From the NCBI GenBank assembly GCA_003281685.1, contig QCBH01000003.1, positions 48,234 to 112,233 of the forward strand: a stretch of 64,000 nt of DNA, in the 5' to 3' direction. The notes under the pieces were generated by a model. It had not been told where the DNA came from. It worked only from the letters and a program-made list of their open reading frames with translations, and searched no databases. Position numbers and translations under genes: made by a program. Of this stretch, positions 3,577 to 63,164 are shown in pieces; within the stretch, counting starts at the first letter, position 1, and each line of letters begins with the position of its first letter. This stretch comes from Prochlorococcus sp. AG-347-E23 (GTDB lineage: Bacteria; Cyanobacteriota; Cyanobacteriia; PCC-6307; Cyanobiaceae).

Positions 3577-4473
3577 ATGTCATTAAAATTAGACGGTAAA
3601 AAATTATCTCTTGAAATTGAAGAAAGATTAAATGACTATATCTCTAGTAATAAAAAAATTGCAAAAAGAGCTCCCGGTTTAGCCGTAATAAGAATAGGTG
3701 AAGACCCTGCAAGTGGTGTTTACGTTAATAACAAGGCAAAAGCATGTTCAAGGATTGGAATAAAGAGCTTTATCTTTCATCTCAAAGATAGTGTAGAGCA
3801 AATAGAAGTTGAACAATTAATAATCAAACTTAACTCTGATAAGGATATTGATGGAATGTTGCTACAACTTCCCATCCCAAAGAAGTTTGATGAGCAAAAA
3901 CTTATCAGCCATATTAATCCAAGCAAAGATGTAGATGGATTAAATGAAATAAACATCGGTAAATTAGTGAAAAATGAGCCTGCGATGAGATCATGCACAC
4001 CAGCAGGAATTATTAATTTATTAAGATCCCAAAATATTACAATTGAAGGTAAGAAGATTGTTGTTATCGGAAGAAGTTTGCTTGTTGGGAAACCCCTATC
4101 GCTTATGTTGTTGAATCTAAATGGAACGGTAACAATGACACATTCAAAAACTTTAAATTTAAATAAGGTCTGTAGAGAAGCAGACATCCTAATTGCTGCG
4201 GCGGGAAAACCCAATCTTGTAGATTCGAGTTTTGTGAAAGATGGAGCAGTAATTATTGATGTTGGCATACATAGATTAAAAAGTTCCGATAAAAATCAAA
4301 CCAGATTATGTGGCGATGTATTATTAGAAGATGTAATTTCTAAAGTATTTGCTTACACACCTGTACCTGGAGGTGTTGGACCAATGACAGTAACAATGTT
4401 ACTTGTAAATACTATTTTTAGCTGGCAAAAACAATTTAGTTTATCATCAACTCTCAATGACCTTTTGCCTTAA
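3577..4473 (+). CDS. folD: Bifunctional methylenetetrahydrofolate dehydrogenase/cyclohydrolase
   Basis: [14 protein letters not shown] and [11 protein letters not shown] motifs. Confidence 0.97.
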
Positions 4474-5425: not shown

Positions 5426-5905
5426 ATGGCTGAGGTTTTTTCCTTTTTTAATAATTCAGTTCTTTTTTGGAGCTTATTATCCTGTTTACTAGCTCAATTT
5501 TTTAAAATTGTATTCAATTTCTTTTCAACTGGAGAGATAAGATTTGGAATCATGTTCGAGACTGGTGGTATGCCTTCAAGTCATTCCGCCTTAATAACTG
5601 GTGCTACATCTGGCATAGGTTATGAATTGGGATTTGATAGCTCAATATTCGCATTATCAGTTGCTGTAGCACTAATAGTTATGTATGACGCTAGTGGTGT
5701 TCGAAAATCAGCTGGGATTCAAGCTGCAGAAATAAATAAACTATCAAAAAAACTAGATCCGCAGTCTGAAATACTTTTAAAAGAAACCCTAGGTCATACA
5801 AAAATTGAGGTCATGGTGGGGAGTTTCTTAGGACCATTAATCACTTTGACTGGAATGTTTTTTTTAGGTTCTCCTCTCAAAATATTTAATTTGTTAATAA
5901 ATTAA
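5426..5905 (+). CDS. Divergent PAP2 family (DUF212-type) membrane protein
   Basis: GGMPSSHSA, VMYDASGVR and LGHT motifs. Confidence 0.88.
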   Translation: MAEVFSFFNNSVLFWSLLSCLLAQFFKIVFNFFSTGEIRFGIMFETGGMPSSHSALITGATSGIGYELGFDSSIFALSVAVALIVMYDASGVRKSAGIQAAEINKLSKKLDPQSEILLKETLGHTKIEVMVGSFLGPLITLTGMFFLGSPLKIFNLLIN

Positions 5906-7297: not shown

Positions 7298-8599
7298 TTA
7301 GTTATTAAAACCATTAAATATTTGAAGGGCTATATTAATAGAATTTTCAAAAAGAGGACTTGTATTACCTCTACTACTTCCCAATAATTTACTAACATCA
7401 TACTCTGATGTAGAAAAAGAATTTGGAACAACTTGTTCTATTAATTCCATATTAGCCATTCCCCCTGCTTCAAGTCTCATACATTCCACTGATTCACAGC
7501 CAAGTATTACACATGTGTTATTTTTTTGAACCTCACTAATTTTTGAAATCAACCTCAATCCAATGACCTGTCCTAAATGAATACTTGGATTTCCCAAAGA
7601 CAAGGGATTAATTGATGCAGAAATTATTTCGCCATTAATTCTTTCAAACTCTATTTTTGTTAATTCTGTATCCCTTTCAACTCTTAGAAAAGACCAATCG
7701 AGTTTATCACTAATCCATGAGATCAAAAACAAAGCTTGAATAATATGATCTCCTGCAATATCAATATCAATATCAGTAATATGATCTAAAATTGGTCTTC
7801 TCGAAGGCGGATCAAAAATCATTGCCAATGATTCCCTCCAATTTTTCAACCTGACCCAATTCAAATCATTAATAGCCTTGTTTGAATTATTTAATTGTTC
7901 TAAAACTTTTAAACATCTATGTGGCGATCCAAGAGCAGTATCAATTATTAACCTTAGACCATAATTAGTAAAATATTCGAAGATTTCAGGCGATTCATCC
8001 AAGCTTCCGTTCCACCACAACCATGAAGGTAATTCATCAATAGATAATTCTTCAATTATTTTTAATCCTTTATTGGATATTGAGGCTGAGTCCCCCCTAA
8101 TAACGACTAAATCTCCACATATAGGTTGAATAGCAGGAGTATCGCTTAATGGACAGTAAGCAGATACAAAAGTTTTGATGTCTGAATTTTTATTTAACGT
8201 TGGAGCTAAAGTTATTAATCTTCTTGGATTCAATGTACTTATTGATGATTCAAAAAATTGTCCCCTAAAGTCTTCAAAGTCTTTCTTAGATAAATTTTCC
8301 TTCAACAAATTCAATAATTCTTCACTATTAAGTGAAGTAGTAATTGGAAGTCCCTTTTCTAATATAAATTTTTTAGCAACTTCAATTATCTCAGGACTTA
8401 AATTTCCAGTAATAGGTCCGTTTACTAATCCTTTTTGAACTAAACATTGTTCTAGCCAAGCAGGCTGCCAGACCATTAGTGTAAAAGTATTAGCTCCTGT
8501 ATTGTCTTTATCTTCTGAAATCCATAATTTATTGAGGTAATTAGAAATTTCCTGATAAGGAAGCTCTAATGGGGTTTGGAGTGTTAGTTGAGGTTTCAT
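7298..8599 (-). CDS. opcA: Glucose-6-phosphate dehydrogenase assembly/activator protein OpcA
   Basis: Directly downstream of zwf; VSAYCP, WLWW and DLNWVRL motifs. Confidence 0.9.
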   Translation of the reverse strand: MKPQLTLQTPLELPYQEISNYLNKLWISEDKDNTGANTFTLMVWQPAWLEQCLVQKGLVNGPITGNLSPEIIEVAKKFILEKGLPITTSLNSEELLNLLKENLSKKDFEDFRGQFFESSISTLNPRRLITLAPTLNKNSDIKTFVSAYCPLSDTPAIQPICGDLVVIRGDSASISNKGLKIIEELSIDELPSWLWWNGSLDESPEIFEYFTNYGLRLIIDTALGSPHRCLKVLEQLNNSNKAINDLNWVRLKNWRESLAMIFDPPSRRPILDHITDIDIDIAGDHIIQALFLISWISDKLDWSFLRVERDTELTKIEFERINGEIISASINPLSLGNPSIHLGQVIGLRLISKISEVQKNNTCVILGCESVECMRLEAGGMANMELIEQVVPNSFSTSEYDVSKLLGSSRGNTSPLFENSINIALQIFNGFNN

Positions 8600-56996: not shown

Positions 56997-58001
56997 AAAA
57001 AAAGACCTGCTAAGTGCAGGTCTTTTAATGTGTGTAAGATTTCTAAATTAAATTTAGATTTAGAAGCTGAATGATGTTTTAACCATGATTCCAGTTTCAT
57101 CTTCATCAGCTGCATCTTCTCCTTCTACAGTGTAAATAAGAGGAGTGATTGTCATTCCGTCATTTAATGCGTATGAATAATATACTTCATACATCAATCT
57201 TTCAGGCATAACACCAGCGGCTTCAGTCATTGATGAAAAAGTACCTACAGCAGCGCCTAGTTCTCCTGGTCCAACTTCACCGTTTAATCCAATGAAGTAA
57301 GCTTCTGTTTCGTCAGATGCTGCTACCTCATTATCAAGATCACCGATTTCATAACCAGCACTGATGTTTAAACCGCTATCAAATGAATAATAACCATTTA
57401 ATGCTGTGTATGTATCGTTATCAATACCATCTTCACTATTTGCGTAAGTAATAGAAACACCGTAGCTATCAGCTGTGTATGCAAGGTTTACCGCAAAAGC
57501 ATCGTCAGTTTCATCGGTAGCAATACCAGTTTCAGTGAATTGAGCACCAACTGCTGTTGTAAATCCATTATCGAAATCATATGCAGCACCAATAGATATT
57601 CCACCACCTGTGATTCCAGCATTTACGTTAGCGCAATCATCAAGTGTGTTAGATGGTCCGCCATAAGCACAAGCTGTGGTAAATAGCATACTTCCATCTG
57701 TGTTGTCTCCAATGAAAGCAGTCGCTCCACCTAGTGGGAATGTGTATGAAATACCATCGACAGTTAGTGCTTCAGAAGCGCTATTAGTGTCGAATTGACC
57801 GAGTGAACCACCTGCGTTACCAGCATCAAGAGAGATATCAAGTGAATCTTCTCCAGTGAAACTAGTGTTCAAGTCAATCTGGAAACCGTAAGTAGCCTGA
57901 AGTTCTTCTTCTCCATCAGTTACTGTAGTTGTGATACCAGCACCATCAACAGCACCGATCGCGAAATCAACTGAGAATGAAGCAGTTGTTGTTTCTGAGA
58001 A
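56997..58001. repeat. 1005-bp direct repeat, copy 1 (porin barrel, 3' UTR, terminator)
   Basis: Matches 58313-59317 at offset 1316; no mismatch found by line-by-line reading. Confidence 0.92.
56998..57026. terminator. Intrinsic terminator of porin 1 (potentially bidirectional)
   Basis: A-run, AAAGACCTGC-TAAGT-GCAGGTCTTT stem, T-run; duplicated at about 58314-58342. Confidence 0.8.
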
Positions 58002-58220
58002 ACCTCCATCATAGCTATCTGTATCAGCTAATCCTTCTCCACCTGCTAGAAGGAGACTTTTATTAGGTTGATCACTATCAAATGAGTTAGCGAATTCGAT
58101 ACTTTCTACATCAGAGTAGTTTGAAATTTCATTGAGGTTAACCTCAGTAGCGTTTGCAGCAATAGGTGAAATCAATCCTAAAGCAGCTGGAGCTACCAAC
58201 AAACGTTGGAAAAGCTTCAT
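57060..58220 (-). CDS. som: Outer-membrane porin (Som type, no SLH), copy 1
   Basis: MKLFQRLLVAPAALG signal peptide, FSETTT barrel start, terminal KTSFSF. Confidence 0.9.
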   Translation of the reverse strand: MKLFQRLLVAPAALGLISPIAANATEVNLNEISNYSDVESIEFANSFDSDQPNKSLLLAGGEGLADTDSYDGGFSETTTASFSVDFAIGAVDGAGITTTVTDGEEELQATYGFQIDLNTSFTGEDSLDISLDAGNAGGSLGQFDTNSASEALTVDGISYTFPLGGATAFIGDNTDGSMLFTTACAYGGPSNTLDDCANVNAGITGGGISIGAAYDFDNGFTTAVGAQFTETGIATDETDDAFAVNLAYTADSYGVSITYANSEDGIDNDTYTALNGYYSFDSGLNISAGYEIGDLDNEVAASDETEAYFIGLNGEVGPGELGAAVGTFSSMTEAAGVMPERLMYEVYYSYALNDGMTITPLIYTVEGEDAADEDETGIMVKTSFSF

Positions 58221-58312: not shown

Positions 58313-59317
58313 AAAAAAAGACCTGCTAAGTGCAGGTCTTTTAATGTGTGTAAGATTTCTAAATTAAATTTAGATTTAGAAGCTGAATGATGTTTTAACC
58401 ATGATTCCAGTTTCATCTTCATCAGCTGCATCTTCTCCTTCTACAGTGTAAATAAGAGGAGTGATTGTCATTCCGTCATTTAATGCGTATGAATAATATA
58501 CTTCATACATCAATCTTTCAGGCATAACACCAGCGGCTTCAGTCATTGATGAAAAAGTACCTACAGCAGCGCCTAGTTCTCCTGGTCCAACTTCACCGTT
58601 TAATCCAATGAAGTAAGCTTCTGTTTCGTCAGATGCTGCTACCTCATTATCAAGATCACCGATTTCATAACCAGCACTGATGTTTAAACCGCTATCAAAT
58701 GAATAATAACCATTTAATGCTGTGTATGTATCGTTATCAATACCATCTTCACTATTTGCGTAAGTAATAGAAACACCGTAGCTATCAGCTGTGTATGCAA
58801 GGTTTACCGCAAAAGCATCGTCAGTTTCATCGGTAGCAATACCAGTTTCAGTGAATTGAGCACCAACTGCTGTTGTAAATCCATTATCGAAATCATATGC
58901 AGCACCAATAGATATTCCACCACCTGTGATTCCAGCATTTACGTTAGCGCAATCATCAAGTGTGTTAGATGGTCCGCCATAAGCACAAGCTGTGGTAAAT
59001 AGCATACTTCCATCTGTGTTGTCTCCAATGAAAGCAGTCGCTCCACCTAGTGGGAATGTGTATGAAATACCATCGACAGTTAGTGCTTCAGAAGCGCTAT
59101 TAGTGTCGAATTGACCGAGTGAACCACCTGCGTTACCAGCATCAAGAGAGATATCAAGTGAATCTTCTCCAGTGAAACTAGTGTTCAAGTCAATCTGGAA
59201 ACCGTAAGTAGCCTGAAGTTCTTCTTCTCCATCAGTTACTGTAGTTGTGATACCAGCACCATCAACAGCACCGATCGCGAAATCAACTGAGAATGAAGCA
59301 GTTGTTGTTTCTGAGAA
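58313..59317. repeat. 1005-bp direct repeat, copy 2
   Basis: Matches 56997-58001. Confidence 0.92.
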
Positions 59318-59494
59318 GCTACCAGCTTCAACGTTATTTAATCTTGCTTCTAAGCCATCTACACGGCTGTTAGTAATAGCAAGTTGTTCTGCAGGGGTGA
59401 AGTCACTAATAGTTACTTCGTTTGCTGTAGCAGACATAGGTGCTAAAAGACCTAATGTTGCAGGAGCTACAAGCAAGCTTTTGAAAAGCTTCAT
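58376..59494 (-). CDS. som: Outer-membrane porin (Som type), copy 2
   Basis: Start placed at MKLFKSLLVAP (59494); coiled-coil-like N-terminus (RVDGLEARLNNVE), barrel identical to copy 1. Confidence 0.9.
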   Translation of the reverse strand: MKLFKSLLVAPATLGLLAPMSATANEVTISDFTPAEQLAITNSRVDGLEARLNNVEAGSFSETTTASFSVDFAIGAVDGAGITTTVTDGEEELQATYGFQIDLNTSFTGEDSLDISLDAGNAGGSLGQFDTNSASEALTVDGISYTFPLGGATAFIGDNTDGSMLFTTACAYGGPSNTLDDCANVNAGITGGGISIGAAYDFDNGFTTAVGAQFTETGIATDETDDAFAVNLAYTADSYGVSITYANSEDGIDNDTYTALNGYYSFDSGLNISAGYEIGDLDNEVAASDETEAYFIGLNGEVGPGELGAAVGTFSSMTEAAGVMPERLMYEVYYSYALNDGMTITPLIYTVEGEDAADEDETGIMVKTSFSF

Positions 59495-59499
59495 AAATT

Positions 59500-59508
59500 T
59501 CCTCACAC
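59500..59508 (-). promoter_or_regulatory. Yfr1 sRNA seed target site in the porin 2 5' UTR
   Basis: mRNA GTGTGAGGA overlapping the ribosome-binding site. Confidence 0.7.
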
Positions 59509-59534
59509 GAAATTTAAAGTACACCTCAAGATAA

Positions 59535-60311: not shown

Positions 60312-60848
60312 TTATAAATTACATCTGGGTTTATTTTTCCAAACAGGAGAATCACAATTTATATTCCCTAAATTCTTTTTCCTTTCGATTTTATTTGCTT
60401 CAACATTATTGGTAATTTGAGTCACCCAAGCAGGTTCATAAGACTCTCGTGTATAACCCTCAGAACCACTTAAATAACAAAAATAGTTTGCTAATTGATA
60501 TCCGATGTGATCGGGTGTTATTGATTGCCAATTAGCAGCAGCATAATAGCCACCAAGAGCACTATTCATTTTTACTTGAATCTTAGAAGTGAATTTATCG
60601 CAATTTAATCTGACTTTGCCTACATATGACATGATGTACTGTGTTTGCCCCTCAAATTCATCCTTAGTCGCATTTCTTTCCATATAGAATCTTAATTTTC
60701 CACTTTTAATCTCTACATCATTTGTATCTATTGTCCAATTCTTGTTAATTCTTACCCATTTGTTGGGAGATTGACTCTCAGGAATCCCTGCATTAACAAC
60801 ATTAGGTAAAGCAAGAGTAGCTAATAATGGGAGTAGTAAGCGTTTCAT
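60312..60848 (-). CDS. Hypothetical secreted protein with C-terminal CDSPV module
   Basis: Signal peptide MKRLLLPLLATLALPNVVNA; ends INCDSPVWKNKPRCNL. Confidence 0.8.
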   Translation of the reverse strand: MKRLLLPLLATLALPNVVNAGIPESQSPNKWVRINKNWTIDTNDVEIKSGKLRFYMERNATKDEFEGQTQYIMSYVGKVRLNCDKFTSKIQVKMNSALGGYYAAANWQSITPDHIGYQLANYFCYLSGSEGYTRESYEPAWVTQITNNVEANKIERKKNLGNINCDSPVWKNKPRCNL

Positions 60849-61018: not shown

Positions 61019-61092
61019 CGGGGCGTGGCGCAGCTTGGTAGCGCGGGTGCTTTGGGAGCACTAGGTCGCAGGTTCGAATCCTGTCGCCCCGA
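61019..61092 (+). tRNA. tRNA-Pro (TGG), encoded CCA to 61095
   Basis: CGGGGCGTGGCGCAGCTTGGTAGCGC-GGGTGC-TTTGGGA-GCACT...GGTTCGAATCC...GCCCCGA-CCA. Confidence 0.97.
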
Positions 61093-61101
61093 CCATTTAA
61101 T

Positions 61102-61129
61102 AGCAAGGGATCCAAGCCCTTGCTTTTTT
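61102..61129 (+). terminator. Intrinsic terminator after tRNA-Pro
   Basis: AGCAAGGG-ATCCAAG-CCCTTGCT followed by a T-run. Confidence 0.8.
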
Positions 61130-61156
61130 ATTTCTAGAGTGTCTCAAATATACAAA

Positions 61157-61203
61157 TAGAGCTAAGAATAGAGCTAGATTCTAATTAAAACTGATTAGCT
61201 CTA
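61157..61203. repeat. Arm-type repeat array at the tRNA-proximal inner end
   Basis: TAGAGCTA at 61157 and 61169 (12-bp period), inverted copy TAGCTCTA at 61196-61203. Confidence 0.75.
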
Positions 61204-61362
61204 AATTTGGTGCTCTATGTTTTATATATTTTATGAAAAACAAATCAAAGCCTAAATAATCAGAATGGGTCGTGTTTAATGCCATGATGGATCAAAACAA
61301 AAGTATCCTCAATCGAGGAACTTACGTTAAAAATGGCAAGTTAAATTTTTTATTATATTTTT

Positions 61363-62742
61363 TTACCAAAATTTAAATATGTTTTCTTTTTCTACGATAT
61401 TCCCACAACTATTTGTATTTTCAGCTTTTCCTGGATTTTCGCTATTAAGAGATCTTAAAATATCCACGATTGAGATCGCAAAATTTAGGTTCTGAGCTCT
61501 ACCTTCGTCTCCAGGCAAACTCCAAGTATTAACTCCAACTACCTCACCATTACTATTAACTAAAGGTCCACCACTATTACCAGGGCTTATAGCTGCATCT
61601 GTTTGTATGAGTGTAACGTAATATGGGACAACATCTTCTAAATCACTCGATGGTTGTCTTACAGCACTTACAATCCCTCTTGTAACTGTTCCTGCCAGGC
61701 CAAGAGGAGATCCAAGAGCAATTACATTTTGACCAGGTCTTGGATATTTACTAAAACAAAGTGGGAGAGCTTTTGAGTTTTTAATATTATTTGCTTGTAT
61801 TAATGCGAAATCAAGCTTTGAGTCCACATAAATAACTTCACCTTGATCTTTCAGACCATCATCTCCAGAGATAGTGAATTCTTTATCGCCCCCGGCTACT
61901 ACGTGCATATTAGTAACAATCAGTCCTTCATTATTAATAAAAAAACCACTCCCTAATCCTGAATCTCCCTCTAATTTGACTACTGAAGGGAGAGTTATAG
62001 ATGCTATTTCCTCTACATCAAGTTTTTTTGAACTAATCGAGGCTCGAGCTATTTCATATTTAGGTTTGTTCCATTCTTTTGTATCTTTCTGGAATAATAG
62101 TTTTAAATTTTTTATTGTCTCTTCTCCAATAGGAATAAATTTATCTGCTAAACCACTATTTGGAATAGCCTTAATTTGCAAATTAATTGATTCATTCTCA
62201 CCCATATTCTTAATTCTTTTTGCAAATCCAGAGGGAAACTGAAATTCACCTCTACTTCCTCTTAATCTAAACCTCTTTTCTCCAACAAATATCTCTATAA
62301 AACCTGGAAAATCATAATATTTAGCACTCTCATAAGTACATGTCCAAAAACCACAACCACCCCATGTCAATATTCTTCCTTCTAATTTATTGGTATTCCA
62401 TTTCGTGACATAACTTTTAACTGCTCCAGTACTAAAATCAGAAACATAATCTCTATCAAAAATTGTTAATTCATAAGAATTTCTAAGAGATGATTTGTAT
62501 TTTATAATTTTGGACCAAGCAATCTTAGGATTTTTCTTTTTCCAATCAACATCTTTTTCATATTCAATCACTTCTAAACCTGTATCCTCATCAATAACTA
62601 CATTTCGCAGATATTTCTCAGTACATCTTTTTTTATTTTTGTGAACAGGAGAATCACAATTAATCTTTACTGCTAATACTTCTGGAATATAAAAAGAACC
62701 TAACCCCAAAAGAATTACTATAGATATAAATTTTCTCATCAA
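61363..62742 (-). CDS. Secreted trypsin-like (S1C/HtrA-like, no PDZ) serine protease with N-terminal extension
   Basis: Signal peptide; triad motifs VTNMHVV, DFALI, GNSGGPL; TVTRGIVSA and IQTDAAI. Confidence 0.92.
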   Translation of the reverse strand: MMRKFISIVILLGLGSFYIPEVLAVKINCDSPVHKNKKRCTEKYLRNVVIDEDTGLEVIEYEKDVDWKKKNPKIAWSKIIKYKSSLRNSYELTIFDRDYVSDFSTGAVKSYVTKWNTNKLEGRILTWGGCGFWTCTYESAKYYDFPGFIEIFVGEKRFRLRGSRGEFQFPSGFAKRIKNMGENESINLQIKAIPNSGLADKFIPIGEETIKNLKLLFQKDTKEWNKPKYEIARASISSKKLDVEEIASITLPSVVKLEGDSGLGSGFFINNEGLIVTNMHVVAGGDKEFTISGDDGLKDQGEVIYVDSKLDFALIQANNIKNSKALPLCFSKYPRPGQNVIALGSPLGLAGTVTRGIVSAVRQPSSDLEDVVPYYVTLIQTDAAISPGNSGGPLVNSNGEVVGVNTWSLPGDEGRAQNLNFAISIVDILRSLNSENPGKAENTNSCGNIVEKENIFKFW

Positions 62743-62838
62743 TTGGATTTTTCTTCCTATTGATATTATCTGTATTTAATTTAATTGTCTCTCTTATGTT
62801 AAGAGGAGATTAATCAGACAAAAAGTCAATTTAGAAAA

Positions 62839-62884
62839 TAGAGCTAGGAGTAGAGCTAGGAGATAATTAACTCTAATTAAAACT
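62839..62884. repeat. Arm-type repeat array at the distal inner end
   Basis: TAGAGCTAGGAG twice (62839-62862), near-inverted TAACTCTA (62868-62875), TCTAATTAAAACT shared with 61180-61192. Confidence 0.75.
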
Positions 62885-62983
62885 AATCAAAACCATCAAA
62901 ATCTTGTCTCAAATCACCTACAAAACCTAGTATCCCTTGAGAAAATAACTAGAGTCTTACATATTTCTCAAAAGTTAGCACTA

Positions 62984-63030
62984 GTGCTTTGGGAGCACTA
63001 GGTCGCAGGTTCGAATCCTGTCGCCCCGAC
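62984..63030 (+). repeat. Displaced 3' half of tRNA-Pro (att site)
   Basis: 47-bp identity to 61047-61093, starting at the anticodon stem. Confidence 0.95.
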
Positions 63031-63104: not shown

Positions 63105-63164
63105 GGGCGAGGAATGGGCGAGGATTTGTATAGCTTTGGAATACTTTGGAGGTTAGCTCGCCCG
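63105..63164. repeat. Second arm-type repeat array (different word) beyond the distal att
   Basis: GGGCGAGGA at 63105 and 63116 (11-bp period), inverted GCTCGCCCG at 63156-63164. Confidence 0.7.

Follow-up and report, generated by a model that had tools for sequence, protein, structure and literature searches.

Candidate arm-type integrase sites inside both ends of an integrase-less tRNA-Pro cassette in Prochlorococcus

Introduction

What are matching arrays of short repeats doing just inside both ends of a small genomic cassette whose only gene encodes a protease? The question is raised by a tRNA-Pro gene of a Prochlorococcus genome which is adjoined by a 1.9-kb single-gene cassette, and in this paper we describe the repeats, their distribution in related segments and the protein they might bind. 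Arm-type sites are familiar from the lambda class of integrases, with P1, P2 and P'1-3 in lambda itself, and also from the integrases of Tn916, L5, HP1 and ICEs. The tycheposons of Prochlorococcus have been described as having seven tRNA targets, stacking and degenerated remnants (Hackl et al., 10.1101/2020.12.28.424599), and most island DNA has been ascribed to flanking material left by imprecise excision (10.1101/2020.12.28.424599). Neither arm sites nor direct repeats are mentioned in that preprint (10.1101/2020.12.28.424599), and a full-text literature search returned no paper linking Prochlorococcus with arm-type sites in this sense. CIMEs, which are cis-mobilizable elements derived from streptococcal ICEs, are thought to be mobilised in trans (PMC5704250).

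Results

The cassette and its genomic setting

The window, meaning the whole 64-kb stretch of DNA that was analysed, is C3:48234-112233 of a 31-contig assembly (1.5 Mb, ~31% G+C), and the genome is 93% complete. The cassette spans window positions 61047-63030; between its two core copies the protease gene is the only gene and no recombinase gene is found. The features of the locus are collected in Table 1.

Table 1. Features of the tRNA-Pro locus, in window coordinates
Feature	Position	Strand	Remark
tRNA-Pro(TGG)	61019..61095	+	integration target
attL core	61047-61093	+	3' 47 nt of tRNA-Pro
Anticodon loop TTTGGGA	61051-61057 and 62988-62994		likely crossover region
Terminator-like hairpin GCAAGGGATCCAAGCCCTTGC and T-run	61103..61135	+	belongs to conserved left end
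GTCTCAAAT, left copy	61141..61149	+	
Left (P'-arm) pair TAGAGCTA-N4-TAGAGCTA	61157..61176	+	63 bp past core end 61093
TCTAATTAAAACT, left copy	61180..61192	+	word common to both ends
Inverted octamer TAGCTCTA	61196-61203	-	
Partial second inverted copy GCTCTA	61212-61217	-	within feature 61196..61217
Sole cargo gene	61363..62742	-	459-aa secreted trypsin-like serine protease (Trypsin_2, E 4e-29)
Right (P-arm) pair TAGAGCTAGGAG x2	62839..62862	+	ends ~122-143 bp ahead of core
TCTAATTAAAACT, second copy	62872..62884	+	
GTCTCAAAT, right copy	62906..62914	+	
Core-proximal conserved block ATAACTAGAGTCTTA...TTTCTCAAAAGTTAGCACTA	62945..62983	+	also in class-I right arms
attR core	62984..63030	+	exact 47-bp copy of tRNA-Pro 3' part
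Left end of next segment	63031..63170	+	like layout, other word: GGGCGAGGA x2 at 63105, 63116

Around the anticodon loop we find the inverted repeat ACTAGTGC-TTTGGGA-GCACTAGG, which is 8 bp long and complementary at 7/8 positions, and whose ACTAGTGC part comes from the right end; the tRNA side of the core has just 4-5 bp of anticodon stem. Longer half-sites in the attP core than in the attB core are the usual difference.

Some further features of the neighbourhood were observed. The protease (61363-62742, minus strand) carries INCDSPVHKNKKRC near its N-terminus, and the adjoining 178-aa secreted protein at window 60312-60848 (minus strand), outside the cassette, has a C-terminal INCDSPVWKNKPRC. 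Two porin-like genes at 57060-58220 and 58376-59524, both on the minus strand, differ at their N-termini and are identical over ~330 C-terminal residues.

Repeat words inside the two ends

The octamer TAGAGCTA occurs on the plus strand at 61157, 61169, 62839 and 62851, and on the minus strand at 61196-61203. The 64-kb window holds just these 5 copies, where 2.4 would be expected and would be scattered, and all 5 fall in two ~50-bp clusters just inside the cassette ends. Across the 1.5-Mb genome there are 63 scattered copies, with 0 tandem pairs elsewhere than in the cassette. All repeat coordinates of the original prediction agree with the letters, and the arrays lie, as it had said, ~100-150 bp from the anticodon loop. 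With a 29-mer measure, the distance of the left pair from the core is 65-67 bp.

Two further words are found at both ends. TCTAATTAAAACT is exact at 61180 and 62872, its observed count was never reached by shuffles, and it is possibly a site for an accessory factor. GTCTCAAAT, also predicted to be shared by the ends, is indeed at 61141 and 62906, but it is non-significant on its own in the window, with at least 2 copies in 25/100 shuffles. In the relatives, however, the TCTCAAA of the right copy is invariant in 8/8 aligned class-I right arms (class I is defined below) and the GTCTCAAA of the left copy in 10/10 left ends of the TAGAGCTA family, and a TCTCA-related motif is found at fixed positions in ~40% of all distinct ends. 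By this sequence comparison GTCTCAAAT is rescued as a conserved word despite its weak window statistics. A near-inverted copy of the octamer in the distal array, TAACTCTA, is present at 62868-62875 as predicted; we rejected it as a conserved site, and it is probably due to chance because it lacks conservation in the other right ends of the family.

The TAGAGCTA family in other genomes

A pattern search of 285 genomes of the genus detected exact TAGAGCTA-N4-TAGAGCTA pairs in ~15 other genomes. All of the pairs examined (~20/~20) stand at a fixed distance from a tRNA-Pro core or core remnant, and in line with the original prediction the arrays adjoin att cores wherever they occur. The left pair begins +65-67 bp after the core and the right pair ends ~-143 bp before it. 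In 10/10 left and 9/9 right ends the octamers do not vary, unlike the 4-nt spacers and the bases around them. Homology within the family starts exactly at the first octamer of the right end and ceases just past the inverted copy of the left end, and the conserved ends measure ~125 bp on the left and ~170 bp on the right.

The cargo framed by these ends is unrelated between genomes. It includes trypsin-like proteases, a 902-aa Big_5/cadherin protein, an RTX protein, a 638-aa unknown protein and a three-gene set; no integrase was found in the TAGAGCTA segments examined. The protease cassette occurs with 96% identity in another, closed genome, where it is third in the array and where the homology begins exactly at the core. 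Since the homology to this copy, which has a different rank, starts exactly at the core, the protease cassette is a discrete module.

Two side observations concern this family. The differing Big_5/cadherin, RTX and unknown cargo proteins at L035 (~8150-8254), L036 and L038 (~5640-5746), on the plus strand, share ~40 C-terminal residues, and this shared C-terminus, ...LMHADGNIQYANYQ...DI[IV]*, stops a few bases short of the right end's first octamer. At L039 (G048:C163, ~3640-3660) what stands in front of a TAGAGCTA left end is not a direct core but a short inverted piece of it, GGAGCGACAGGATTCGA, which suggests a local inversion.

Stacked segments with matching ends

The TAGAGCTA cassette is the first of at least 5 stacked tRNA-Pro segments, and the 47-bp core recurs downstream at C3 114158, 116921, 119704 and 124770, the last copy being degenerate. 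Just inside its left end each segment carries a word pair of its own (7-9 nt, 11-12 bp apart), which recurs just inside its right end. The word is TAGAGCTA in segment 1, GGGCGAG in segment 2, GGTAGCT in segment 3 and, at the left of segment 5, GATGTCA; the two ends of segment 4 do not match. This fourth segment (C3:116921-119750 of the same genome, past the end of the window) carries CACGCGAAACTCACGC on the left versus GATGTCA x2 on the right, and its right word agrees with that at the left of segment 5. It is probably a composite left after the loss of a core. Other mismatched composite segments are found at L061 and L046.

For a quantitative analysis we used 28 non-redundant core-to-core segments from Prochlorococcus genomes and summed the longest common substring of left versus right ends. 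The sum is 332 for the true pairs against 229 +/- 8 for permuted ones, and was reached in 0/20000 permutations. The true partner is best or tied-best for 16/28 left ends.

Integrase-bearing tRNA-Pro elements and their attP

Related elements at tRNA-Pro encode tyrosine recombinases of the tycheposon type, with the integrase gene reading away from the right-end core. The stretch from the integrase ATG to the core contains a tandem pair of words and also AGCACTAGGT, which copies a core half-site over 12 nt. Their left ends carry the right-end word as 2 direct and 1 inverted copy, like the TAGAGCTA left end. One word is found at both ends of each element: GTGGGAAA, TCCGTAGA, GTACGAA, GTGCGAAA, TGTGTGTGA, TTCCCTCAAA or TTATGTCAT, and in another element TCCGTGGA, a variant of TCCGTAGA.

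A sub-class of these elements, class I, has xxGAGCTAG-type words that repeat with a 12-bp period; its left pair lies at +50 to +75 and its right pair at ~-145. By word and geometry TAGAGCTA falls in class I. The class-I integrases have 410-476 aa and the words beside them are GGGGAGCTAG, GGTAGCTAG, GGGGCGCTA, GGGGGATCT or TGAGCGAG; integrase types named after their array word include GGGGAGCTA, GGTAGCTA and GGGGCGCTA. Class-I elements with two readable ends always have one word at both. The likeness of the class-I word GGAGCTAGG to the core half-site GGAGCACTAGG invites speculation about a possible link.

The right end of the cassette (window 62809-63003) aligns gap-free to the integrase-proximal P arms of 7 class-I elements, with the arrays in equal columns and the core-proximal block in common. 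The original prediction had held that both attP arms are retained, and this collinearity with the P arm of integrase-bearing relatives agrees with it. Its further claim that all cis signals are kept is uncertain: both arms are there, but the TAGAGCTA cassette lacks the motif 'CAT-(A/G)AGCACTAGGT', which intact elements have ahead of their arrays. In the right ends of such elements (for example L053 7230-7260, L197 and L218) the integrase start codon is followed directly, on the opposite strand, by (A/G)AGCACTAGGT, a 10-12-nt copy of the core half-site at a distance of ~150 bp from the true core. Some integrase-less segments, such as segment 2 of the genome studied here (G000) and the second segment of L198, still have remnants of this copy, while the TAGAGCTA family has none.

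An excised circle and a tandem junction are both products of site-specific recombination. The 11.4-kb metagenome contig L233 (ERR599355 k127_183745) wraps round an 8.33-kb class-I element; its primase-helicase gene is found at either end, with a repeat unit of 8330 bp, and a single core joins the left-end gene to the integrase. The copy of this element in a SAG (L232 8565-16928) has 8335 bp between its cores. At the L233 junction, P arrays, core and P' arrays follow each other without interruption, and two shorter contigs share this type of left-end/core/integrase junction. From its sequence, L233 appears to be an excised circle or a tandem junction of a class-I tycheposon with an intact attP.

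A different arrangement was observed in 17 genomes, where a 468-aa integrase lies directly upstream of a full-length tRNA-Pro (L057 4729-6291; L065 17965-19526). These loci have TGTACGCAA x2 ~170 bp before the tRNA, and L072 has two full tRNA-Pro genes. The elements seem to carry a whole copy of tRNA-Pro.

Array word and integrase hairpin

Two integrases, i466 and i471, are 92% identical and differ at residues 30-31, 34, 36-37, 43 and 46; their arrays differ too, being GGGGAGCTAG for i466 and GGGTAGCTAG for i471. The integrase i453 is only 52% identical to i466, yet its residues 28-58 are identical and its array is equal. We then sorted metagenomic homologues by their hairpin and noted the array type expected from a like or near-identical hairpin before the DNA was inspected. 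The array type noted beforehand was carried by 7/7 sorted homologues. An eighth homologue, for which there was no firm forecast and whose hairpin is 1 residue off the GGTAGCTA group, carried GGTAGCTA arrays. As judged from these sequences, the array word tracks a short N-terminal beta-hairpin, predicted from models, of the class-I integrase. An exception is GGGGCGCTA, which occurs with two different hairpins. Once an element is excised, its arrays, core and hairpin codons all lie within ~450 bp, so the co-variation of word and hairpin may partly reflect the exchange of one linked block instead of selection for binding.

The AlphaFold model of the N-domain has a helix at residues 9-21, strands at 27-32, 35-41 and 47-55, and helices at 58-77 and 82-92, with a pLDDT of 84-89, and the variable residues belong to the first two of these strands and to their turns. 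Beyond the N-domain there are a flexible linker and a body which Foldseek matched to XerH, Cre and XerA. A Foldseek comparison of the N-domain with PDB structures, lambda Int and Tn916 Int included, gave no significant match (best E 0.09), and therefore a lambda-Int fold of this domain cannot be claimed. Sequence searches with the N-domain against Pfam and PDB found nothing, and the class-I integrases match no Pfam family, neither Phage_integrase nor another.

Search for a cognate integrase

The original prediction had proposed that the octamer identifies its integrase family. This holds insofar as the kind of word points to the class-I tRNA-Pro integrases of 410-476 aa, but no TAGAGCTA integrase was found. 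The pattern search of the 285 genus genomes showed no integrase flanked by TAGAGCTA. Class-I integrase matches are present in 10/285 of these genomes, none of which overlap with the genomes that have TAGAGCTA cassettes, and the proposed co-occurrence with an integrase clade was not seen, the exact pair being found in 0/10 of them. Two metagenome scans with the TAGAGCTA integrase pattern gave 0 matches. Scans of viral contigs gave chance matches to TAGAGCTA only, away from any tRNA-Pro core, and 0 matches to the integrase-proximal pattern. Protein searches and 12 look-ups of the context of homologues revealed many hairpin variants, none with TAGAGCTA. The cassette genome itself has just two tyrosine recombinases, both distant and both encoded elsewhere, one beside tRNA-Thr on C1 and the other on C8. 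Because the genomes with class-I integrases and those with cassettes do not overlap, the TAGAGCTA cassette is stranded unless a cross-reacting integrase acts on it. The GAGCTAG part of the TAGAGCTA word is common to the GGGGAGCTAG group.

Discussion

We consider it likely, with a rough probability of 0.68, that the repeats are integrase sites of the arm type and that the cassette which carries them, at tRNA-Pro(TGG) of a high-light Prochlorococcus, is a non-autonomous one of the tycheposon type with a single cargo. This reading builds on what we observed directly, namely the structure of the ends, their recurrence, the left-right matching, the collinearity with integrase-bearing arms and the tracking of hairpin by word. 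The arm-type layout and behaviour that had been predicted appear to hold up in the sequence comparisons.

The conserved ends of the cassette would then be the P' (left) and P (right) arms of an attP. The TAGAGCTA repeats, 2 direct copies 12 bp apart per arm and the inverted copy on the left, would most probably be where a class-I tRNA-Pro tyrosine integrase docks with its N-terminal domain, and strand exchange would take place within the anticodon loop, which the inverted anticodon-stem half-sites flank. As the cassette encodes no integrase and its genome has no cognate one, it would move only if another element brought in an integrase that matches or cross-reacts. Integrase binding, present-day competence for recombination and mobilisation of the cassette in trans are what we infer from this arrangement.

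There might be another protein of the element that binds the repeats, such as an excisionase/directionality factor or a repressor, or the repeats might serve the integrase promoter, mainly as its operators. The right pair of intact elements is just ~20-40 bp upstream of the integrase ATG, which is an operator position, and the second common word after the arrays (TCTAATTAAAACT here, ATCTTCGAAGAT in relatives) implies that probably more than one protein binds the arms. However, the word is also found in the other arm, which is kilobases from the integrase gene when the element is integrated, and integrase-less cassettes retain their arrays with no gene to regulate. The tracking of the integrase's N-terminal hairpin by the word also speaks against this explanation, which we regard as unlikely.

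Somewhat less probable still is that the arrays are inert relics of a decayed remnant, with ends that are alike by descent alone and serve no present function. The invariance of the octamers in 19/19 ends, while spacers and neighbouring bases vary, argues against this, as do the like ends framing unrelated cargo in many genomes and the discrete nature of the cassette, with the cores as its exact bounds. What decay would explain is the absence of a cognate integrase from the genome and from everywhere searched, the loss of the upstream core-like motif AGCACTAGGT and the lack of conservation of the distal near-inverted copy.

Short direct repeats at about one helical turn are also reminiscent of iterons, and tycheposons do encode replication proteins, for instance the primase-helicase in L232. 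It is nevertheless very improbable that the repeats are replication-origin iterons or partition sites of the excised element, as they flank the recombination core on both sides at fixed distances, are kept in cassettes without replication genes and track the integrase, not the replicase. That the match between the two ends is due to chance, as the non-significance of GTCTCAAAT alone in the window might hint, is refuted by the fixed distances at which the arrays turn up again in other genomes, and has practically no probability left in view of the octamer clustering, the family invariance and the 0/20000 permutations.

The comparison with known systems shows what the arm-site reading shares with each of them; lambda-type arm sites come nearest in mechanism, and streptococcal CIMEs in being bounded by att sites without an integrase. 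As in the lambda class, each arm has short repeated non-core sites, whose distance from the core runs from tens of bp to ~150 bp. They resemble the lambda-class sites in lying 50-150 bp from the crossover, in their spacing of about one helical turn and in being element-specific; in the relatives these element-specific sites co-vary with the integrase, and TAGAGCTA itself is without a found partner. Likewise, a predicted extra N-terminal domain precedes the core-binding and catalytic domains, and other conserved words lie between arrays and core. In contrast to the lambda class, the cassette family has 2 direct (and 1 inverted) copies per arm, and its arms survive without an integrase. No significant fold match to lambda or Tn916 Int was obtained with the class-I N-domain, and none to Pfam with the integrases.

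With tycheposons the cassette shares the tRNA-Pro(TGG) target, which is one of the seven tRNA/tmRNA targets, the flanking partial tRNA repeat, the stacked insertions that push older ones inward and the tyrosine recombinases of related segments. Tycheposons have a tyrosine/serine recombinase of their own and a replication module, whereas the TAGAGCTA segment has neither and its sole gene is the protease. The cassette is CIME-like in that both att sites bound it and recombination, transfer and mobility genes are missing; CIMEs accrete in tandem with autonomous elements at the 3' end of a tRNA or other gene. The host and the element family are different, and the TAGAGCTA-type family is widespread with varied single cargos, its mobilisation being putative. 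Integron cassettes, too, are small and mostly one-gene units stacked at one site, with a tyrosine recombinase encoded elsewhere. However, the boundaries of our cassette are 47-bp tRNA-Pro cores with long arms in place of an attC site, there is no attC hairpin, and no resident integron integrase was identified.

Genomic islands hold most of the flexible genes of Prochlorococcus, and their construction is only partly understood. Core-bounded units with matched, element-specific arm repeats give tycheposons a cis-anatomy that is absent from the 2020 preprint, and the tRNA-Pro segments examined differ from its model in being discrete core-bounded units with matched arms. The results provide a small natural table of integrase hairpin versus DNA word, which might serve to retarget such integrases. 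For specialists in island formation we expect them to be of moderate interest.

Our findings suggest that many island segments are discrete cassettes that could be moved by an integrase from elsewhere, and integrase-less cassettes moved in trans would be a route of cargo exchange. A more far-reaching and tentative possibility, which we find doubtful at present, is that discrete cassettes without an integrase make up much of the tRNA-Pro island, with complete, word-coded att arms that are read by the hairpin of the tycheposon integrase, and that they are addressed in trans. If true, this would be an alternative to the model in which imprecise excision leaves flanking DNA behind as islands grow. 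Cassettes would then be traded much as in integrons, under a code of protein-DNA specificity that can be read, and each integrase variant would have its own set of cassettes.
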